64,000 bases of DNA from an uncultured Candidatus Saccharibacteria bacterium (GTDB lineage: Bacteria > Patescibacteriota > Minisyncoccia > UBA6257 > 2-01-FULL-56-20), in the NCBI GenBank assembly GCA_964484655.1, contig CAZAFA010000001.1:164742-228741 (forward strand), written 5' to 3'. Positions 32,368 through 58,826 of this stretch are shown here, piece by piece. Numbering within the stretch: position 1 is the stretch's first letter; every line of letters begins with the position of its first letter. The notes under the pieces were generated by a model. The model worked only from the letters and a program-made list of their open reading frames with translations, did not search any database and had not been told where the DNA came from. A program made the translations under genes and the position numbers.

Positions 32368-34122
32368 CTACTGGACTACGCCGCTTCCCGAGCCGGCCGT
32401 GCCGGCCTGGAGGGCGGTGGTCTGGGTCGGCGCCGTCTGCTTCACCGCGCGGCTCGAGAAGGTATCGACCGCGTTCAGCGTCGTCCCGGTGACCAGGTTC
32501 ACGATCCTCCCCTTCTGGTTCGCCGCCGGCGTGAGCTCGACCTGGAAGGCGGCGCTCACGGTGCCGTTCGCGGCGACGCTGCCCGGACGCCAGGTCACCA
32601 TGCCGGTCCCCGCGTCATAGGTGAGCGCGGACGAGGTCACGCCGCCGAGCTTGCCCGTGAAACGGATGCCGGGCGCGAGCGACGCCGTGACCACCGCGTC
32701 CTGGAGCGGAGCGTTGGCGGGACTGATCGTCCAACGAACGACGTACTGCGTCGCGACGCCGACCTGCGGCGGCTGCGGGCCCGCGTTCGCGACCTGGCCG
32801 AGCGGATCGCGCCAATGCACGGCGGCGGCGAACGAGGTAGCGGCGGCGAGGCGGCCGGTTGCTGAGTCGGTCGCGGTCACGCCGGTCGCGGACGTGCCCG
32901 GCGGGACGGTCGGCGAAGCGGCCGTGACCGTCAGCGGCGCGGTGACGGCTGCGCCGGCGGACGTCCGCGCGAGGCGCACGCCGACCTGCAGCTGGACCGC
33001 CTTGCCCGGCTCGAGCGAACGCAGTCCCGGCACGCCGACGCCGGTCCAGGTCACCACCGGCTCGCGCGCGGAGAGCGCGCCGCCCTGCGCCTGCACCGAA
33101 GAAAGGACGAAGAGCGATCCGCCGAGCGTCGCACGCACCTGGATGTCGGCGAGCGGGATCGTGGCGAGGTTCCTGACCTCGATCTGGTACGTGATCGACT
33201 CGTTGAGGTCGACCGGCGCCTCCTTCTGGCCCTTGAGGAGCACCGTCACGGCGAGCGCATCCGAGGAGACCTCGACCGTCGCGGACCGCTCCGCGAGCTG
33301 CCGCTGCCCCTGGGTGACCGTCGCGCGGATAGGCATCTCGTGGGGCGCGCCAGGCCCGGGCACGAGCGAGAGAGCCACGGTGCCCTGCTGCCGAGCGGGA
33401 ATCGACGGCAAAAGCAGGACGTTCGACGTCAGCGCGGGCGTGCTGCTCGCGACGGTCAGGCCGCGCGGCAGGGAGAGCTCGAGGCGGATGCCTGTCAGCG
33501 GCTGGTCGGTGTTGTTGCGGTAGCGCAGCGACGCGGAGAACGGCGCGATCCGCACCACCGCAGCGGGAGCCTCTATCGCCAGCGAGAGCGCGGGCTGCTG
33601 CACGATGAGCTCGCCCTGGGCGCCGGCGGAGAAGCGCCGGGAGACGTCGCGCGCGGTCGCGTAGGTCGCCTCGGCCGAGACCGGCACGGCGCTCGACGGA
33701 TCCAGCTCCGTGCTCAGCACGAGCGTGACCTCCTTCTCCTCGCCCGGGGCGAGGTCGCCGATCGCGACCACCGGCACCTCGATGCTCGACGAGGCAGTCT
33801 CGGCGTCGAGACCCGCAGCGGTCGTCTTCTCGGGCAGGCGCACCGCGAGCTCGACCGCGAGGGCCGTATCTTTCGGCGAGGCGTTGCGGACCGTGACCTT
33901 CAGGTCGCGCATCGAGCCGGGCACCAGGGGCTGCGCGTCGAGGACGACCGATACCGGAAGGGACACGGCGCGGGTCGTCCACCAGTACGCCGCGGCGCCT
34001 CCCCCGAGCACGAGCACGGCGACGAAGCCGCCTATGATCCAATGCAGGTACGAGCGCCGCTCGCCGACCACCACCGCTTGCTGGTACGGGGTCGTTCCCC
34101 AGGGGGATTCAGGAGCGTCCAT
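32368..34122 (-). CDS. membrane-anchored surface protein with tandem DUF11-like/Ig-like repeats
   Basis: start at MDAPESP..; N-terminal TM; repeated ...VTVRNASPKD.../...EVRNLATIPL... beta-sandwich-type repeats. Confidence 0.5.
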   Translation of the reverse strand: MDAPESPWGTTPYQQAVVVGERRSYLHWIIGGFVAVLVLGGGAAAYWWTTRAVSLPVSVVLDAQPLVPGSMRDLKVTVRNASPKDTALAVELAVRLPEKTTAAGLDAETASSSIEVPVVAIGDLAPGEEKEVTLVLSTELDPSSAVPVSAEATYATARDVSRRFSAGAQGELIVQQPALSLAIEAPAAVVRIAPFSASLRYRNNTDQPLTGIRLELSLPRGLTVASSTPALTSNVLLLPSIPARQQGTVALSLVPGPGAPHEMPIRATVTQGQRQLAERSATVEVSSDALAVTVLLKGQKEAPVDLNESITYQIEVRNLATIPLADIQVRATLGGSLFVLSSVQAQGGALSAREPVVTWTGVGVPGLRSLEPGKAVQLQVGVRLARTSAGAAVTAPLTVTAASPTVPPGTSATGVTATDSATGRLAAATSFAAAVHWRDPLGQVANAGPQPPQVGVATQYVVRWTISPANAPLQDAVVTASLAPGIRFTGKLGGVTSSALTYDAGTGMVTWRPGSVAANGTVSAAFQVELTPAANQKGRIVNLVTGTTLNAVDTFSSRAVKQTAPTQTTALQAGTAGSGSGVVQ

Positions 34123-34615
34123 GGCGCAATGGTACCACCTCGCCCGGCGGCGGCGCATGCGGCGCGTGCTCCGCGCAGAGGAATTCCTGGTTCCTGACGA
34201 TGAAGGCGGCTGCGGCACGCCCGCATGCCGTGCAGGAGGCGTGCCGCGGGTCCCAGCCGAGCGCGACGAGCGCCGCGCTCCAGTCCATGCGGCTCGCGGT
34301 AGCGATCCTCCAGACCTCGGGCTCGGAGACATGCTCGGGAAGCAGCCGGTCCAGGAGCAGGCACTCCCCGAGATCGCGGACGGACTCCTTGATGGTGAGC
34401 GCGTCGCCGACGCGGATGTCGCGCTGCTCGATCAGGCGCACGGATACCACGCTTCCTTCAAGGAGATGCGGGCCGAGGCGCGAGGTGATCTTCCGTCCCG
34501 ACACGACGGTGGCGTGGAGCCTCCCGAGCTCCTCGGCGAAGAGCGAGACGCGCAGGTCGGCCTCCCCCTGCGGGTAGCGCGCGAGCACGAGCGCGCGGGT
34601 CACCGGTTCGTGCAT
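34109..34615 (-). CDS. recO: DNA repair protein RecO (short)
   Basis: N-terminal OB-fold pattern RALVLARYPQGEADLRVSLFAEELGRL...GRKITSRL; C-terminal C-x2-C...C zinc motif. Confidence 0.6.
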   Translation of the reverse strand: MHEPVTRALVLARYPQGEADLRVSLFAEELGRLHATVVSGRKITSRLGPHLLEGSVVSVRLIEQRDIRVGDALTIKESVRDLGECLLLDRLLPEHVSEPEVWRIATASRMDWSAALVALGWDPRHASCTACGRAAAAFIVRNQEFLCAEHAPHAPPPGEVVPLRHGRS

Positions 34616-34662
34616 GGATCCAGTGTACGGCATCGCAAAAGGGACACCGCTAGGTGCCCCTT

Positions 34663-35322
34663 TCATTCCTGTCTCGCCTCCTGTCTTTTCTCGAGGATGC
34701 CGAGCATCTGTTCCGTGATCGCGTCACGCTCCTGGGTGCCGTCTATGACGTGATACTGCCAGCCCAGGATCGATGGCGCCTGGAGATACCGGCTGCGCCG
34801 CTGGACGTACTCGTCGAGTCCCGCGCGATCGAAGTGATTCGTCGTCCGCGCGATGTCGTCCGATACGCCATGGACACGCCGGAGCGCGACCTCGGGCGGC
34901 ACGTCTATGACGAACAGCTCGCGCGGGATCCATCGCAGCATCTCAATCACGACCCGGCTCACCTCGAGGATCCGCTCGGCGGTCAGCCCGTACTGCGTCT
35001 GATAGACCAGCGTCGAGACGATCGAGCGATCGGCTATGACGCTTCTCCCTGCGTTCACGGCCGGCTCGACGACGGTCCTCATCAGGTACTCGCGCTGGAG
35101 CGTGAACATCAGCAGCATCTCCTCGCTGTTGAGCCGCACGTCGTCAGCGAGCAGGATCTGCCGAAGATGCATGCCCATCGGCGTGCCTCCGGGTTCGGCG
35201 ACCTTGACGTAGCCTGATTCTTCACCGCCGAGCCTCTCGAAGAGGCGCTCGACCTGGGTCGTCTTTCCGACCCCGTCCATTCCCTCGACGATGATCAGGC
35301 GACCTAGCTTATGTATGGCCAT
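34663..35322 (-). CDS. tmk: thymidylate kinase
   Basis: IIVEGMDGVGKTT P-loop; DR lid region; start at MAIHKLG.. (219 aa). Confidence 0.85.
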   Translation of the reverse strand: MAIHKLGRLIIVEGMDGVGKTTQVERLFERLGGEESGYVKVAEPGGTPMGMHLRQILLADDVRLNSEEMLLMFTLQREYLMRTVVEPAVNAGRSVIADRSIVSTLVYQTQYGLTAERILEVSRVVIEMLRWIPRELFVIDVPPEVALRRVHGVSDDIARTTNHFDRAGLDEYVQRRSRYLQAPSILGWQYHVIDGTQERDAITEQMLGILEKRQEARQE

Positions 35323-35408
35323 TGAGCCACCTCCTATTCGATTTTGCTTTGCCGAGGCCACCATAGAGCAATGCCCCGGACTCGTGAAGAGCCGGGGCAT
35401 CGTTTCGT

Positions 35409-37094
35409 TTACGCAGCCTGCGCGAGGGCCACGCCGACCGCCTCGCGGGCGAACCGGTACGCTGGGGTACGGTCCGTCCGTGAGATTTTCTTCCACCACG
35501 GGAGCCGGCGGAGGATGTCGTCGTCGAACGACAGGACGACCTGGCGCGCCTCGTGGTTGACGTTGAACCCCGAACGCTGCCAGCAGAGGAACTCCATCTG
35601 CCGCAGGTTCGACAGGTGCGTCGTGCCCACGTTGAAGCCGAGCGGCACCACGTACTGCAGCGTCTCTGGTTCCACTTTTTGACCGAGGTAGCGGTCGTAC
35701 ACGCGGAGCGTGTCATGCGCAATCAGCCCGAAGTCCTGCGCCAGGCTCTCCGGCATCGGCTTGTCGTACTGGTAGAACCCCAGGTACGGCGTGAGCAGGG
35801 TGCGCTCGTTGCTCGAGCAGACGTGCCGCTGGATCTCACGCCAGGTCCTGAAGGACATCAGGCGCGCGAACCGCACGACGGCGTTCTCGAACAGCGGCGG
35901 GAGCCGATCGTGGTCCCCGCGCGGCTCGAAGAGTCCCGCCTTCTCGAGCATCAGCTCGACGTCGCCTCCGCCGAAGCCGAGGAATCCCAGCCCGTCCGCG
36001 ATGGCGCGCTCGGCGTCCTCGTGCGTCCACGGCGTGAGCAGGCTTCCCGGCTTACCCACCAGCCCCTTGAACGCGCCCCAGTCGAGGTAGCGCGCTTGAG
36101 CCTGTTCCCACGGAGTCGGCTCGAGGTGCTGCGCGAACTGCCCGAGACCGGACTGAGCGAGCTCGTCGAGCAGCAGCTCGGCGAGCGCCGTCGTCTCGGA
36201 AAGCCCTTCCAGCAGCAGGCACTTGATCAGCGACCTGAGCGCCTCGCCGGATACCGCGCAGCCGACCGACGTATAGGTCGCGGCCGGCAGGGCGTTCGCC
36301 AGGACGTCGCACACTTCCCCGAAGATGGGTCCGCGTGGAACGTCCGGGTAGAGCCCCTGGAGGTAGTCCGTGAAGGATTCCGCCTGTCCGGTATAGACAT
36401 CGGCGCATCCGCGCAGCAGCGCCTCGAGGTCGCCCTCGACGGCGAAGCCGGCCGCGGTCAGCTCGTCGCCGACCGGGTACCAGGCTGCCGTACGCATGTC
36501 CACGTAGCGCGTGGAAAGCTCGATGTAGCCGGCACCGACGCGCGCGTGCTCGAGCGCCTTGGCGGCGAGGGTCGAGACCTGCTCGAAGCAGGCGATGACC
36601 GTCCCCATCCGGGCAATCGAGTTGTGCCCGTACTTGTCGAGATAGGTCTCGAGCAGGCGGCGGGTCCTCGCGCCGTTGGCGAACCGCTTCAGGTACTCGG
36701 GATCGCTGCACAGGTTCTGGCGGAAGTTCAGCCAGATGCCCCAGGAATCCGGGTCGAAACCGATGAAGTCATCGAGCGACGCGAATCCCTTCGCCTTGAT
36801 GAACGCCTCCGTGTCGCCGGCGAACTCCTGCCCGACGGCAGGGTGCTCGCTCGCGAGGAAGCTCAGGGCGATGACGTCCGCGAAGACGCCGCGCAATCCT
36901 CGTGCGTTCTTGATGCGGGAGTACATCGCGAGCATCGATGCCGCGACGTTGCTCGGCAGGTTCTCCACGAGGAAGACGTGCCGGTCCAGGTTGCTGAAGA
37001 AGGGGCGCAGGGCCGTCTTCTCGTTCTCGGTAAAGCCGTACGGGACCGTACGGCGGACGTGCTCGCGCGCGAACGCGAGCTGCGCTTCTGTCAT
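35409..37094 (-). CDS. ThyX-family (flavin-dependent thymidylate synthase)-like protein, unusually long/tandem
   Basis: 561 aa; EHARVGAGYIELSTRYV resembles the RHR..S..S.RY ThyX signature; second copy-like region (EIQRHVCSSNERT; LSNLRQMEFLCWQR...HEARQV); AGGAG RBS; adjacent to tmk. Confidence 0.45.
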   Translation of the reverse strand: MTEAQLAFAREHVRRTVPYGFTENEKTALRPFFSNLDRHVFLVENLPSNVAASMLAMYSRIKNARGLRGVFADVIALSFLASEHPAVGQEFAGDTEAFIKAKGFASLDDFIGFDPDSWGIWLNFRQNLCSDPEYLKRFANGARTRRLLETYLDKYGHNSIARMGTVIACFEQVSTLAAKALEHARVGAGYIELSTRYVDMRTAAWYPVGDELTAAGFAVEGDLEALLRGCADVYTGQAESFTDYLQGLYPDVPRGPIFGEVCDVLANALPAATYTSVGCAVSGEALRSLIKCLLLEGLSETTALAELLLDELAQSGLGQFAQHLEPTPWEQAQARYLDWGAFKGLVGKPGSLLTPWTHEDAERAIADGLGFLGFGGGDVELMLEKAGLFEPRGDHDRLPPLFENAVVRFARLMSFRTWREIQRHVCSSNERTLLTPYLGFYQYDKPMPESLAQDFGLIAHDTLRVYDRYLGQKVEPETLQYVVPLGFNVGTTHLSNLRQMEFLCWQRSGFNVNHEARQVVLSFDDDILRRLPWWKKISRTDRTPAYRFAREAVGVALAQAA

Positions 37095-37150
37095 AACGTT
37101 GTATCTCCTTTCTGACGTATTCGATTTTCTAGGATCGTGACCTCCTTATA

Positions 37151-37612
37151 TCAGGAATCGCCGGGGTGTCCATGTCCCGGGACGCGCCTGAAGACGAGCT
37201 TGTGATAGCCCAGGAAATTCAGCATGAGCGACACGCCGGTGGCGACGAGCTTCGCCAGGTTGGCCCAGAGCGTGGCGTTGAGGGCGAACGGCGACCACCA
37301 GACGAGGATGCTGCTGATCCCGACGTTCACCAGGAAGCTCACGACCGTGACGAGGTAGAACTGCGGGAGCTCGCGGCGCGGGTCGCGGCGCTTCTCGCGG
37401 AAGGTCCAGTTCCGGTTCCAGAGGAAGCTGTTGAGCGTCGCTGCGGCGAACGAGACCGTCGCGAGCACGGGGAAGATGCGCGCGTGCGAGTCCCCTTGCG
37501 CGAACAGGTACAGAAGCAGGTTGAGGACGGCGAGGTCGACGAGCGTGTTGAGGACGCCCACGACGCCGAAGCGGATCAGCCGCGGCGCGTGCTTCTTCAG
37601 GAGGCGCACCAT
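37151..37612 (-). CDS. GtrA-family membrane protein
   Basis: 153 aa; RLIRFGVVGVLNTLVDLAVLNLLLYLF GtrA-like N-terminus; four TM helices. Confidence 0.7.
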   Translation of the reverse strand: MVRLLKKHAPRLIRFGVVGVLNTLVDLAVLNLLLYLFAQGDSHARIFPVLATVSFAAATLNSFLWNRNWTFREKRRDPRRELPQFYLVTVVSFLVNVGISSILVWWSPFALNATLWANLAKLVATGVSLMLNFLGYHKLVFRRVPGHGHPGDS

Positions 37613-37613
37613 C

Positions 37614-39494
37614 CTACGCGAGGACGCCGCGGATGCGCCGGATGCCGGCCGCCACCGCCTCCTGCTTGCTGATGCGGATGCCGCCGATCTCGCCGGTGCG
37701 CTTCACGTGCGGGCCGCCGCAGAACTCCTTGCTGAAGGCGCCGTCCCAGTCGTAGCCGATGCGCCAGACGCGCACGACGTCGCCGTACTTGGCGTTCATC
37801 ACCGTCAGGGCGCCGGTCTTGTCCGCCTCCTCGCGCGGCATCTCGAACATCTCCATCGGCAGGTCCTCCCTGATCTTCTCGTTGACCAGGTCCTCGACGC
37901 GCTTGAGCTCCTCGTCGGTGAGCTTGCGGTCGAAGGTGAAGTCGAAGCGCGTCCGCTCCGCGGTGATGTCGCTTCCCGCCTGGCGAACCTCGGGGCCGAG
38001 GACTTCGCGGAGCGCGGACTGGATCATGTGCGTCGCCGTGTGCAGCCGGCTCACCTTCTCGTACTCCTCGGGCGAGCTCGTGCGGATGTCCCCGTTCTCG
38101 TCGTACATGCCGTGGCCGCCGAACTTCTTCTCGGCGCCCGCGCGGGATTTCTCGCGATGCTCGTCCATCTGCTTCTGGAACTCCGCGATACGCGCCTCGC
38201 GCTCCTCGCCGGCCACGTTGAGGATCTCCAGCGAGAGCTCCACCGGGTAGCCGTACGTCGTGTACATAGTGAAGAGATCCACGCCTTCTCCGAGCTTCTG
38301 CGCGCCCTCGCTGAGGGTCTTCCGGAACTTGCGCTCCTCGGCGACGAAGACCTCGCTGATCTCGCTCGCCTTCTCGGTCAGCACGGGATAGGTATCCGCG
38401 TAGATCTCCGGCAGGACCTGGAAGATGCTCAGGAGCGAATCCCCCTGGAGGCCGAGCTTGTCCGCGCGCACGATGGCGCGGCGCAGCAGCCGCCGCAGGA
38501 CGTAGCCCCGCGCAGAGTTGCTCGGCACGACGCCGTCCGCTATGAGGAACGCCGAGGCCTTCAGGTGATCGGCGAGGACGCGGTAGCTGTACTCGTTGCC
38601 TTCGTACGCCGACCCGGAGCGCTCCGCGATGCGATCGAGGAGCGGCTTGAAGAGCGCGGTCTGGAAGACGTCCGGGTCACCGACCGCAGCAGCGGCGATG
38701 CGCTCGAGCCCGCCACCGAAGTCCACGTTCTGCTTGGCGAGCTTGTCGAAGCCGTTCTCCGTCTTCTTATATTCCATGAAGACGGAATTCCCGATCTCGA
38801 GGAAGCGGCCGCAGTCGCAGTTCGGGTGGCAGTGCGCGCCGAAGGCAGGGTCATGAGGGATCCCGGAGAACTCGAAGAAGACCTCGGAATCAGGGCCGCC
38901 AGGTTCGCCGACCGGCATCTTCGCGGGACTGCCCTGCCGGCACCACCAGTTCTTGTCCCGGTAGTAGAAGATGCGCTCTCCTTCCTTCATGCCGCGCGTT
39001 GCGGCCTCCTCCTCGGTGACCATCTCGCCGATGCCGTTGCTGACGCCCTTCTTCGCGAAAAGCCCCTGCCAGATGCCGGCTGCCTCCTCGTCGCGCGGGA
39101 GGTCGTTGTCCGGATCGCCGGCGTACACCGTCACGTAGAGGCGCTCCGGGTCGAGCTTGACGACCTCGGTGAGGAACTCGAAGAACCACGGGAGCTGCTC
39201 CTTCTTGAAGTAGTCTCCCAGGGACCAGTTCCCGAGCATCTCGAAGAACGTGGTGTGCCGGTTGTCCCCGACCTCCTCGATGTCCTGGACGCGCAGGCAT
39301 TTCTGCGAATCCGCGAGGCGCGCGCCGTCCGGATGCTCCTGGCCGAGCAGGTACGGCACGAGCGGTTGCATGCCGGAGCCGGTGAAGAGCGTCGTCGGGT
39401 CGTTCTCCGGAGTGAGCGAAGAGCTCGGGATGACCGTGTGCCCGCGCTCCTCGAAGAACTTCAGGTAGGCGGAGCGGATGTCGTTCGCGTTCAT
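37614..39494 (-). CDS. alaS: alanine--tRNA ligase, short form lacking C-terminal C-Ala domain
   Basis: MNANDIRSAYLKFFEERGHTVIPSSSL...FTGSGMQP catalytic core; editing-domain HTATHM motif; 626 aa. Confidence 0.88.
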   Translation of the reverse strand: MNANDIRSAYLKFFEERGHTVIPSSSLTPENDPTTLFTGSGMQPLVPYLLGQEHPDGARLADSQKCLRVQDIEEVGDNRHTTFFEMLGNWSLGDYFKKEQLPWFFEFLTEVVKLDPERLYVTVYAGDPDNDLPRDEEAAGIWQGLFAKKGVSNGIGEMVTEEEAATRGMKEGERIFYYRDKNWWCRQGSPAKMPVGEPGGPDSEVFFEFSGIPHDPAFGAHCHPNCDCGRFLEIGNSVFMEYKKTENGFDKLAKQNVDFGGGLERIAAAAVGDPDVFQTALFKPLLDRIAERSGSAYEGNEYSYRVLADHLKASAFLIADGVVPSNSARGYVLRRLLRRAIVRADKLGLQGDSLLSIFQVLPEIYADTYPVLTEKASEISEVFVAEERKFRKTLSEGAQKLGEGVDLFTMYTTYGYPVELSLEILNVAGEEREARIAEFQKQMDEHREKSRAGAEKKFGGHGMYDENGDIRTSSPEEYEKVSRLHTATHMIQSALREVLGPEVRQAGSDITAERTRFDFTFDRKLTDEELKRVEDLVNEKIREDLPMEMFEMPREEADKTGALTVMNAKYGDVVRVWRIGYDWDGAFSKEFCGGPHVKRTGEIGGIRISKQEAVAAGIRRIRGVLA

Positions 39495-39542: not shown

Positions 39543-39860
39543 CTATCGGGTCAGTAGCAGCCCGACGAACGCAGCCAGCGTGATGCCGAAGAAGATGAGG
39601 AGCGTCCACTGGAACAGCGAGACCGCGTCCTTCTTGCGCCCGTCCAGGTACCAGAGCACCGGCTTGCCGAGCATCAGGTAGGCGGTCAGCGCCGCGGAGA
39701 ACACGAACAGCGAGATCATCGCGATCGGCGTCAGCCACGTGTCCGGCGTATTCTCGCCGAATACCTTGCCAGCGTTCTGCAGGAACGTGCCGACGCCGGC
39801 GATGTAGAGCGCCGTCCCTGACGCGTTGAGCGCCGCCTGCCTGACGATGCCGCCCTTCAT
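39543..39860 (-). CDS. small membrane protein (three TM helices), hypothetical
   Basis: 105 aa starting MKGGIVRQ.. directly after the rpoD stop (1-nt overlap). Confidence 0.45.
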   Translation of the reverse strand: MKGGIVRQAALNASGTALYIAGVGTFLQNAGKVFGENTPDTWLTPIAMISLFVFSAALTAYLMLGKPVLWYLDGRKKDAVSLFQWTLLIFFGITLAAFVGLLLTR

Positions 39861-41335
39861 CAGATGACGTTCTCGAAGCCCTCGAGGCCGGCGGCCTTGT
39901 CGTGCTCGCGGATCTTCTCGAGCGCCTTCGCCTCGATCTGACGGATACGCTCGCGCGTGACGCCGAACACCTTCCCCACCTCCTCGAGCGTGTGATAGAC
40001 GCCGTCCTCGAGGCCGAAGCGCATGTTGATGATCTTCTGCTCGCGCTCGGTCAGGGTGCCGAGGATGTCGCGGATGAGGTCGCGGAGGTACGCCCGCGCG
40101 GCGAGCTGGTTCGGGGCCGGGTTGCGCTCGTCCGGGATGAAGTCCGCGAGGACCGAGTCCTCCTCGTCGCCGACCGGCGTCTCGATGGAGAGCACGTCCT
40201 GGCTGATCTTCTGGATGTGGCGCACCTTGTCCACGTCGACGCCCATCTCCGCGGCGATCTCCTCCGCGAGCGGCTCGCGTCCGAGATCCTGCATGAGCGA
40301 GCGGCGGACCTGCGTGTACTTCGAGATGACCTCGACCATGTGCACCGGGATGCGGACGGTGCGGGACTGGTCCGCTAGCGCGCGGTTGATCGCCTGACGG
40401 ATCCACCAGGTCGCGTACGTGGAGAACTTGAAGCCCTTCCGGTAGTCGAACTTGTCGACGGCGCGGCTCAGGCCGATGTTCCCTTCCTGGATGAGGTCGA
40501 GGATGGACAGGTGCGGCGTGCGGTTCACGTAGCGCTTGGCGATCGAGACCACGAGGCGGAGGTTCGCCTTGATCAGGAGCTGGCGCGCCTCCTCGTCGCC
40601 GGCCTCGGCGCGCTTGGCGTAGTCCTGCTCCTGCTGCTTGGTAAGCAGCGCCGTGCGGCCGATCTCCTTGAGGTACGCCTGCACCGCGTCCGGAACCTCG
40701 GTGCCGAGATCGAGCGCGTTGGCGAGCTCCGCCTCGGAGACGAGCTCCTTGTCGTCGATGAGGTTGCCCGACTCCACGACCTTCAGGCCCGCGTTCGCGA
40801 GCGCGTCATAGACCGTATCCAGGATGTCGATGTCCTCCTCGATGGACGGGAAGTACGAGAGTATCTCCGAGTCCGTGACGAAGCCGCGCGGCTTGCCGCG
40901 CTCGATGAGCTCACGGAGCGCTCCGGCCTGCTCCTCGCTGAGGTGCTCGAGGCTGACCTCGGCGCCCTCCTGGCGCGCGCCCTTCCCCTTCTCCGCACCC
41001 TCGGGCAGCTTCGGCGCGTTGAGCGGACGGCCGCCGACGCGTACCGGCGGCAGCTTCTTCGCCGGCGCCTTCTTGACGGTCTTCTTTGGCGCGGCCTTCT
41101 TGGCGGCCTTCTTGACGGTCTTCTTCGGCGCAGCCTTCTTCTTGGCGGGAGCCTTCTTTGCCGTCTTCTTCGAAGCTTTCTTCACGCTCTTTTTGACGGC
41201 CTTCTTCGGCGCCGCTTTCTTGGCGGCCTTCTTGATTACTTTCTTGATCGATTTCTTCGCCGCTGCCTTCTTCGGGGCAGCCTTGCGAGAAGAAGATTTA
41301 ACCGTCTTCTTAACGGCCTTCTTGGCGGCAGGCAT
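39860..41335 (-). CDS. rpoD: RNA polymerase sigma factor RpoD with Lys/Ala-rich repetitive N-terminal extension
   Basis: regions 1.2-4.2 ([12 protein letters not shown], rpoD box [35 protein letters not shown], region 4 HTH); about 170 aa of AKKAxKK repeats at the N-terminus. Confidence 0.92.
40985..41335 (-). repeat. imperfect tandem coding repeats (AKKAVKK-type) within rpoD
   Basis: recurring cttcttggcggccttcttgacggtcttcttcggcgc-like units visible on the plus strand. Confidence 0.5.
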
Positions 41336-58179: not shown

Positions 58180-58826
58180 CAGACCTCGGCGAGCTCCGGG
58201 CCGAGCACGCAATACGCAATTTCGCGCTCCTTCGCATACGCCTCGAACTGCGCGTCGCCGTTCGCGCGGAAGCCGTCGATCAGGAACCCGTCATGGACCG
58301 GGAACGCGACCTCGGGCTTGAGACGATCGAGAAGCGTCGCCAGGTGCGGACGCGTGCCCCAGGGCGCTGCGGTCGGGAGCGCGAGGACGCGCGTACCCGC
58401 CCAGGCGTCGAGCGCGACGGACGTGCTGTCGCCAGTGACGACGAGCTCGCCGCTGATGCGGAACGCGGCGTTCTGCGGCACCGGGCCGAGCACCGGGTCG
58501 TGACCGGCTATCAGTACCCCGACCTGCGTGCCGAGAATCTCAAAATCCGCGAAGCCGTGGTCGGTTGCGCCGATGCCCTTCCCGCGCAGCAGGTCGACGA
58601 TATCGGAGCTCGCGTACACCGGAATGCCGGGATGCGCCGCGAGAGCCCACTGGAGCAGGTCCGGATCGAGATGGTCCGCGTGGCTGTGCGTGACGAGGAC
58701 GGCGTCGATACGGTCGCCGAGCGCCGCATCAGGTATCGCGCTCATGCTGCCCGGGTCCAGGAGCAGGCGCGTGCCAGCTCCCGTCTCCACGAGCAGGCAG
58801 CTGTGGCCGAACTTCGCGATCCGCAC
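58179..58826 (-). CDS. MBL-fold metallo-hydrolase
   Basis: THSHADHLD motif; 215 aa. Confidence 0.75.
   Translation of the reverse strand: MRIAKFGHSCLLVETGAGTRLLLDPGSMSAIPDAALGDRIDAVLVTHSHADHLDPDLLQWALAAHPGIPVYASSDIVDLLRGKGIGATDHGFADFEILGTQVGVLIAGHDPVLGPVPQNAAFRISGELVVTGDSTSVALDAWAGTRVLALPTAAPWGTRPHLATLLDRLKPEVAFPVHDGFLIDGFRANGDAQFEAYAKEREIAYCVLGPELAEV

Follow-up and report, generated by a model that had tools for sequence, protein, structure and literature searches.

The thyX-tmk locus

The locus raises the question whether a 561-aa open reading frame (ORF) next to the dTMP kinase gene tmk encodes a thymidylate synthase, and how its two ThyX-like halves are to be understood. It lies in a 64-kb window, the whole stretch of DNA that was analysed. 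The original prediction had described an ORF of this length with an AGGAG ribosome binding site (RBS) upstream of tmk, and all three were found on the reverse strand, with the following layout.

35409..37094, reverse strand: thyX, long (two-domain) form, 561 aa
37105..37109, reverse strand: AGGAG RBS of thyX, 10 nt before the ATG (direct sequence reading)
35369..35402, reverse strand: GC-rich hairpin in the thyX-tmk spacer, beginning 6 nt past the thyX stop codon, without U tract
34663..35322, reverse strand: tmk (dTMP kinase), 219 aa, RBS AGGAGGTG at 35328-35335
34109..34666, reverse strand: short recO-like gene, 185 aa, Pfam RecO_N 34.4 bits

The ATG of thyX is preceded by AAAGGAG, and the codon composition of the ORF (GC3 0.89, GC2 0.44) fits a window of 66% GC, which argues that it is a real gene. 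The product of tmk scored 107.3 bits against the TIGR00041 equivalog (cutoff 83.25) and 103 bits against Pfam PF02223. A tmk start at GTG 35499 was dropped; the actual start codon is the ATG at 35322, preceded by AGGAGGTG, and thyX and tmk therefore do not overlap. The 86-nt spacer between them holds a strong hairpin. Folding of the spacer RNA (89 nt) gave −36.6 kcal/mol with a z-score of −3.6, a value equalled by none of 200 shuffles, and the hairpin at 35369..35402 was not called in a terminator scan. Because this structure sits between both genes, their co-transcription is uncertain. At the other end of tmk, the stop codon is overlapped by the ATG of the recO-like gene (ATGA).

The window offers a housekeeping context, with alaS, gtrA, tmk, recO, rpoD, dnaG and uvrABC. 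A search of its 64 kb revealed neither thyA nor folA, nor a second thyX. A weak tblastn match of E. coli ThyA at 58530-58745 (E 0.16) was judged to be due to chance, since the ORF at that position carries an HxHxDH motif, which is typical of metallo-beta-lactamase-fold proteins.

Sequence profiles and predicted fold

The 561-aa protein matched the Pfam Thy1 profile (PF02511) in two stretches with 54.3 bits, above the cutoff of 24.8. Taken alone, the N half scored 34.9 bits (E 1.7e-8) and the C half 22.6 bits (E 1e-4), so the resemblance to ThyX reflects homology and not chance. The AF2 model (pLDDT 91.5, pTM 0.90) has the ThyX three-dimensional fold in both predicted domains, and a Foldseek search with this model returned ThyX chains only. 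The C half could also be aligned with Thermotoga maritima ThyX by hhalign (probability 97%, E 7e-11). The assignment as ThyX-like, originally made from motifs, was thus borne out by the profile score of each half and by structure prediction. A chance motif on an unrelated fold would agree with the phmmer search of the single protein against the PDB, which found only noise, and with the lack of a sequence match between the halves, but is refuted by the profile and fold results and keeps a negligible probability.

A search of NCBIfam gave no match for the window protein, and the thyX equivalog TIGR02170 (cutoff 87.9 bits) gave none at E<=1. The same model scored 227 bits with T. maritima ThyX, 60.3 bits with the long ThyX of Chlamydia trachomatis and 18.4 bits with the CPR protein P0037.

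Direct sequence similarity between the two halves was absent, with an hhalign probability below 1%, which excludes a recent internal tandem duplication. The fused pseudo-dimer that had been proposed for this protein stands. The fusion is older than the split between the CPR and the Chlamydia-type long ThyX.

Membership of a long ThyX class

Homologues of approximately 570 aa occur throughout the Patescibacteria/CPR, and several of them are named "FAD-dependent thymidylate synthase" by NCBI. Outside this group, BLASTP aligned residues 21-535 of the window protein with residues 8-505 of P0121 (E 4e-28). The 90% cluster of P0121 holds C. trachomatis entries named 'FAD-dependent thymidylate synthase' as well as the ThyX of C. 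muridarum. The Chlamydia proteins were reached with an approximate C. trachomatis ThyX probe, 92% identical to the database protein P0121; all conclusions on the Chlamydia type rest on the database proteins P0121-P0254 and not on the probe sequence. Profiles of the CPR and Chlamydia-type proteins aligned over 473 columns with an hhalign probability of 99.96% (E 5e-39).

The window protein has colinear, full-length homology to proteins of about 500-600 aa with two Thy1 domains and, judged by its sequence, is a divergent member of this known long-ThyX class. The two-domain architecture is not new, as it is shared by Chlamydia ThyX and hundreds of database clusters. No description of the architecture turned up in a literature search on ThyX proteins that are tandem, long or from CPR, and no long ThyX was found among the solved structures. 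The C. trachomatis enzyme has been cloned, purified and assayed, and is an active thymidylate synthase (PMC3498832) in an organism without ThyA and Tdk (Table 1 in PMC4913046).

Distribution of active-site residues over the two domains

Conservation was tabulated for 44 CPR and 26 Chlamydia-type proteins, and residues were matched to those of T. maritima ThyX. The domains and motifs are located as follows.

36090..37007, reverse strand: N-terminal ThyX domain, residues ~30-335, keeps the substrate loop, without dUMP-binding arginines
36609..36632, reverse strand: N-domain YGHNSIAR, equivalent to T. maritima G52-H53-E54-T55
36504..36551, reverse strand: N-domain motif EHARVGAGYIELSTRY, residues 182-197, placed by hhalign to T. 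maritima ThyX
35949..36089, reverse strand: inter-domain linker, residues 336-382, poorly conserved, with a lower pLDDT of 74-75
35472..35948, reverse strand: C-terminal ThyX domain, residues 383-541, with R78-, N163-, R165- and R174-type residues
35787..35852, reverse strand: C-domain motif FRTWREIQRHVCSSNERTLLTP, including EIQRHVCSSNERT, residues 415-436, placed by hhalign and the conservation table
35544..35609, reverse strand: C-domain NLRQMEFLCWQRSGFNVNHEAR (NLRQMEFLCWQR..HEAR), residues 496-517

The N domain contains a helical insertion at residues ~66-139. Its motif EHARVGAGYIELSTRY aligns with T. maritima Q75..R78(H79->V, R80->G)..E86-x-S88-x-R90-Y91 and reads H-A-R-V-G...E-L-S-T-R-Y, with a single arginine left of RHR. 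The 44 CPR and 26 Chlamydia-type sequences share R185, E192, S194, R196 and Y197 with little or no variation; within the CPR clade, H157, S159 and R162 do not vary. At other arginine positions this domain has acidic residues, namely D263 for R147 and D/E296 for R174, and the R165 position is acidic as well.

In the C domain the RHR position is occupied by R423-H424-V425, the consensus of the CPR clade being R-[QHM]-[GV]. Three residues are deleted at L87-S88-G89, the catalytic serine loop, T432 stands in place of R90 and a glutamine at the R147 position. The stretch NLRQMEFLCWQRSGFNVNHEAR corresponds to N163-A-R165...R174...E182, in which both the CPR and the Chlamydia-type clade have N496, R507 and R517 without exception. 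The domain thus keeps R423, N496 and R507, with R498 present in most sequences. A register with R419 as R78 and R431 as R90 was rejected in favour of R423 as R78, on account of the hhalign alignment, the position of the RHR of the Chlamydia proteins at the aligned site and the predicted strand positions. Over both clades the invariant residues are S159, E182, R185, E192, S194, R196, Y197 and D263 in the N domain and R419, R423, R431, Q480, N496, R507 and R517 in the C domain.

The RHRxxSxxxxSxR motif is therefore present only as the sum of both domains. The residue types that contact dUMP in T. maritima (R78, R174, S88, R90 and Y91) have putative counterparts in R423 and R507 of the C domain and S194, R196 and Y197 of the N domain. 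The flavin phosphate contacts H79/R80 are not kept as a pair in either domain, the positions being V186/G187 in the N domain and H424/V425 in the C domain, where the CPR consensus has Q/G. The catalytic residues are split between N and C in a complementary manner. One intact and one degenerate motif had been expected; the degeneracy was found, but it affects both motifs, which complement each other (xxR...E-x-S-x-R-Y in the N domain, R-H-x without the S-x-R loop in the C domain).

Such losses might also mark a catalytically dead ThyX derivative, a pseudoenzyme or nucleotide-binding regulator with a structural or regulatory role, since the motif is incomplete in either domain, H79 and R80 are gone and acidic residues stand at R147, R165 and R174 of the N domain. 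The losses are complementary, however, and both domains jointly supply every dUMP-contacting residue listed in PMC6514825. These residues are also (nearly) invariant in 70 sequences from two phyla-level groups, and the Chlamydia enzyme with the same split is active (PMC3498832). A dead enzyme is accordingly considered very unlikely.

Gene neighbourhood in CPR relatives and probable function

The linkage to tmk that had been pointed out in the window recurs in the relatives, where tmk adjoins thyX, on either side, in 17 out of 41 CPR loci. Genes similar to dCTP deaminase are found in nine of these 41 loci and dUTPase in three. The recurrent presence of tmk, dCTP deaminase and dUTPase as neighbours supports a role in dTMP synthesis.

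The complete miss of the TIGR02170 equivalog and the reduced RHR motif would also suit a flavoenzyme of the ThyX fold that is not the thymidylate synthase of the cell and methylates another nucleotide (UMP, as PolB does, or dCMP) or performs another one-carbon transfer. Yet the nucleotide-contacting residues are common to Chlamydia ThyX, which is a dTMP synthase, the repeated neighbours tmk, dcd and dut make up the dUMP-to-dTDP pathway, and the window is without antibiotic-biosynthesis context, so that another substrate is thought unlikely.

It is probable that 35409..37094 encodes a long two-domain flavin-dependent thymidylate synthase, which converts dUMP to dTMP, with Tmk as the next enzyme. 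The observations that speak against a thymidylate synthase are the loss of H79 and R80 of RHR in both domains throughout the CPR clade, the missing TIGR02170 match and the glutamine for R147 in the C domain.

Proposed split active site

The roles of the residues by subunit in canonical ThyX have been reviewed (PMC6514825). The RHR arginine and R174 come from one subunit, the S88-x-R90-Y91 loop from a second and the flavin contacts from a third. In the long protein, the C domain would provide the arginine/flavin side with R423, N496, R498 and R507, and the N domain the substrate loop with E192, S194, R196 and Y197. A homodimer would mimic the shape of the canonical tetramer, with two complete composite sites and two dead ones, and the neighbouring Tmk would phosphorylate the dTMP made. 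We infer that the protein forms a dimer, that this has two sites and that it is active as an enzyme in this organism; where the third-subunit residues T55 and R165 belong in a two-domain protein is ambiguous.

A more speculative proposal, which we hold to be possible but doubtful, is that the CPR long ThyX is a half-sited synthase with two composite sites per dimer and a rewired flavin site, in which the lost ligands (H79, R80 and the N-domain R165) are replaced by the clade-invariant R416, R392, H157 and R162. If this were true, the flavin binding mode or stoichiometry, or the reductant, could differ from those of any characterised ThyX.

Significance

ThyX is an antibiotic target. To our knowledge, mechanistic and structural work on ThyX has so far dealt only with single-domain homotetramers. 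The long ThyX is a natural experiment in which the subunit roles for one active site are separated on one polypeptide. The locus suggests that reduced CPR genomes keep a de novo route to dTMP, running from dCTP deaminase and dUTPase through ThyX to Tmk. Curated equivalog models miss the divergent CPR ThyX, and thymidylate synthesis could therefore be wrongly scored as absent. A long ThyX in CPR is real yet fairly ordinary, the type being known from Chlamydia and common in CPR.

Comparison with known systems

Canonical ThyX proteins, such as T. maritima TM0449 and Mycobacterium tuberculosis Rv2754c, are homotetramers of approximately 220-250 aa subunits. According to the model, their fold is found in both domains of the window protein. 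The types of dUMP-contacting residues are common to both, and the chemistry is presumably the same, dependent on flavin, NADPH and methylene-tetrahydrofolate. Where canonical ThyX has four identical subunits, the window protein has two different domains fused into one chain, and neither domain by itself holds the full RHRxxSxxxxSxR motif. The prediction is for no more than two complete sites in a dimer, compared with four in a canonical tetramer.

PolB (PDB 4p5a), the UMP/dUMP C5-methylase of polyoxin biosynthesis, is a single-domain protein from an antibiotic gene cluster. The window thyX differs in its position beside tmk, and in relatives also dcd and dut; no nucleoside-antibiotic gene cluster context was found in the window.

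The closest likeness is to the long ThyX of C. trachomatis (CT632 type, 529 aa), with relatives in the Chlamydiota, Victivallaceae and Verrucomicrobia. The identity to the window protein is only 24%. The C-domain RHR is complete and invariant in the Chlamydia type (R395-H396-R397), whereas the window protein has R423-H424-V425. The Chlamydia enzyme reaches 60 bits with TIGR02170, below the cutoff of 87.9, and the window protein nothing. Charges are swapped between the clades, with H157/R162/E260/E284/R392/R416 in CPR and D96/E101/K208/R232/E364/G388 in Chlamydia, and the helical insertion at ~80-140 is longer in the CPR proteins. Like the window protein, the Chlamydia enzyme has two ThyX domains, and the two are colinear along their full length. 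The N domain of both clades carries R-..-E-x-S-x-R-Y with an aspartate at the R147 position, and the C domain of both has counterparts of R78, R174 and N163 together with a glutamine at the R147 position, and lacks the S88 loop.

Organisation of the thyX locus

The local gene order is alaS-gtrA-thyX-tmk-recO, with the following features.

32368-34332, minus strand: gene for a 654-aa Ala/Thr/Val/Ser-rich protein, after recO
34109-34666, minus strand: recO-like gene, 185 aa, with a RecO_N match and a weak C-terminal match only
34663-35322, minus strand: tmk, dTMP kinase
35369-35402, minus strand: GC-rich hairpin with a 14-bp stem in the thyX-tmk spacer, beginning 6 nt past the thyX stop codon
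35409-37094, minus strand: thyX, 561-aa ORF
37614-39494, minus strand: alanyl-tRNA synthetase gene
39860-41335, minus strand: sigma-70-like protein gene

The thyX ATG is preceded by AAAGGAG, of which the AGGAG portion lies at 37105-37109. The codon-position GC of the ORF (0.67/0.44/0.89) matches the expectation for a window of 66% GC, indicating a real gene, and the three peptide strings quoted in the original prediction were all located at the expected positions. A second, stronger Shine-Dalgarno-like sequence, AAGGAGGT (37140-37147, minus strand), directly follows the gtrA stop codon (37151-37153), about 45 nt 5' of the thyX ATG; no start codon is placed suitably for it.

The downstream gene, proposed to encode thymidylate kinase, does so according to both TIGR00041 (107 bits, cutoff 83.25) and Pfam PF02223. 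Translation truly begins with the ATG at 35322, preceded by AGGAGGTG; this start yields a product of 219 aa and is also used by independent gene calls on identical contigs. The gap between thyX and tmk is therefore 86 nt, without overlap. An ATGA overlap joins tmk to the short recO-like gene and couples the two translationally; a RecO-like neighbour of thyX occurs in three other CPR loci as well. Folding of the spacer (89 nt) gives −36.6 kcal/mol (z −3.6). Its hairpin, which has no U tract and was not called by the terminator scan, may act as a U-less terminator, as an attenuator or to stabilise the mRNA. Because of this hairpin the suggested thyX-tmk operon is plausible but unproven.

By Pfam, 20 other genes of the window have housekeeping functions; neither thyA, folA nor a second thyX was found within the 64 kb by tblastn and Pfam scans of these genes. 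At 626 aa the alanyl-tRNA synthetase is short; no domains other than the catalytic and tRNA_SAD ones were detected, so it appears to lack the usual C-terminal domain. In the sigma-70-like protein, the N-terminal tail (about 95 aa) is nearly all Lys/Ala/Pro with AKKAVKK-type repeats and resembles a histone H1-like DNA-binding tail. The 654-aa protein, with an N-terminal hydrophobic segment and, on identical contigs, a faint CLIPPER-domain match only, is probably a surface protein. The GC content is 62–72% throughout, unusually high compared with Paceibacterota/Parcubacteria-type CPR genomes, where the homologous loci are mostly AT-rich.

Two ThyX domains

Pfam Thy1 matched the whole protein in two stretches with 54.3 bits (cutoff 24.8). 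Searched separately, the N half scored 34.9 bits and the C half 22.6 bits; both are ThyX domains. In the PDB, a profile from 44 family members (alignment A1) matched ThyX chains of T. maritima and nothing else, through the C domain, pairing N496/R498/R507 with N163/R165/R174. With Chlamydia-type sequences added, the C half aligned to T. maritima residues 30–209 (probability 97%, E 7e-11). The predicted tandem duplication stood in that both halves are assigned to ThyX, but they show no direct similarity to each other (hhalign probability <1%) and the fusion is ancient. It may just as well have joined two paralogues that had diverged beforehand.

Distribution and genomic context

The first homologue search returned 228 relatives of 550–617 aa, the named ones all from Parcubacteria/Paceibacterota-type CPR bacteria. 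Several are labelled ‘FAD-dependent thymidylate synthase’ (NCBI) or ‘thymidylate synthase ThyX’ (JGI), so that a thymidylate synthase label already exists in public annotation for this family. A scan of species-representative genomes gave 42 loci, without exception in Patescibacteria, the nearest with a ThyX identity of only 56%. Against a library of 50%-identity representatives, the CPR profile matched 2636 clusters at E≤1e-3, of which 261 reached E≤1e-30, ranking about 60 CPR-type clusters ahead of proteins of 480–740 aa matched in two stretches. The curated thyX equivalog model TIGR02170 (cutoff 87.9) gave 227 bits for T. maritima, 60 for the Chlamydia enzyme, 18 for another CPR member and no match for the window protein, the divergence being large enough for it to be missed. 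The original observation was confirmed, and its interpretation is essentially right. The window protein belongs to the long two-domain ThyX class, as a divergent representative from the CPR, and is not a new kind of enzyme.

Three genes on each side of thyX were clustered for 41 CPR loci. Tmk was the commonest neighbour (17 loci), immediately upstream on the same strand in 12 of these. Pfam-confirmed dCTP deaminase-like genes (6+3 loci) and dUTPase (3 loci) were also found, the former of two types, one of 370 aa (DCD_N+DCD_C) and one of 233 aa. Together with tmk these genes form variable thymidylate-pathway clusters; the dUMP-to-dTDP linkage thus recurs in varied arrangements, which supports a thymidylate role for CPR long ThyX.

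Active-site residues divided between the domains

The Chlamydia long ThyX family was retrieved with a probe sequence. Griffin et al. reportedly devoted a kinetic paper to C. trachomatis ThyX in 2005. The window protein (residues 21–535) aligned to a 529-aa member, P0121, head of a 90% cluster holding C. trachomatis and C. muridarum entries (E 4e-28, 24% identity), and the CPR and Chlamydia-type profiles aligned over 473 columns with a probability of 99.96%. Cloned ThyX from C. trachomatis has served as an active enzyme (PMC3498832), and ThyA and Tdk are absent from this species (PMC4913046).

Each canonical active site is formed between three subunits: A contributes RHR together with the R174-type arginine, B two residues that touch the flavin, a Ser/Thr following the GH motif and the R165-type arginine, and C the S88-x-R90-Y91 loop (PMC6514825). 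These residues were mapped through the alignments and counted over 44 CPR and 26 Chlamydia-type sequences.

Counterparts of T. maritima ThyX active-site residues (T. maritima; N domain; C domain)
H53; H157 (CPR), Asp (Chlamydia type); L398
T55; S159; variable, P400 in the window protein
R78; R185; R423
H79; Val/Pro; H424 in the window protein, Q/H/M over the CPR clade
R80; Gly; V425 in the window protein, G/V over the CPR clade
E86; E192; R431
S88; S194; deleted (3-residue deletion at L87-S88-G89)
R90; R196; T432
Y91; Y197; L433, not conserved
R147; D263; Q480
N163; S282; N496
R165; E284 (CPR); R498
R174; D/E296; R507

What the two domains have lost from the active site is therefore complementary, a pattern common to both clades. 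Of the single degenerate motif originally proposed, the C-domain part was confirmed, but the N domain is degenerate too. In the simplest reading, the C domain would take the role of subunit A and the N domain that of subunit C, and a homodimer imitating the tetramer would hold two working, composite sites. The counterpart of subunit B is ambiguous, as S159 lies in the N domain and R498 in the C domain. Neither a published description nor a solved structure of such a complementary split in long ThyX was found. The residual interest lies in this split and in the fact that the CPR clade has lost two residues of RHR.

Comparison with the Chlamydia-type enzymes

RHR is intact in the Chlamydia C domain, whereas in the CPR clade it is not. 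Where CPR sequences have invariant R416, R392, H157 and R162, the Chlamydia type has G388, E364, D96 and E101, and CPR E260 and E284 are replaced by K208 and R232. In the family alignments A1 and A2, residues 157, 162, 260, 284, 392, 416 and 425 thus read H/D, R/E, E/K, E/R, R/E, R/G and V(G)/R (CPR/Chlamydia), each invariant inside its own clade. These reciprocal charges suggest co-varying contacts near the flavin and phosphate site; speculatively, positive charge may have been relocated around the flavin and nucleotide phosphates in the CPR clade, relative to the Chlamydia type.
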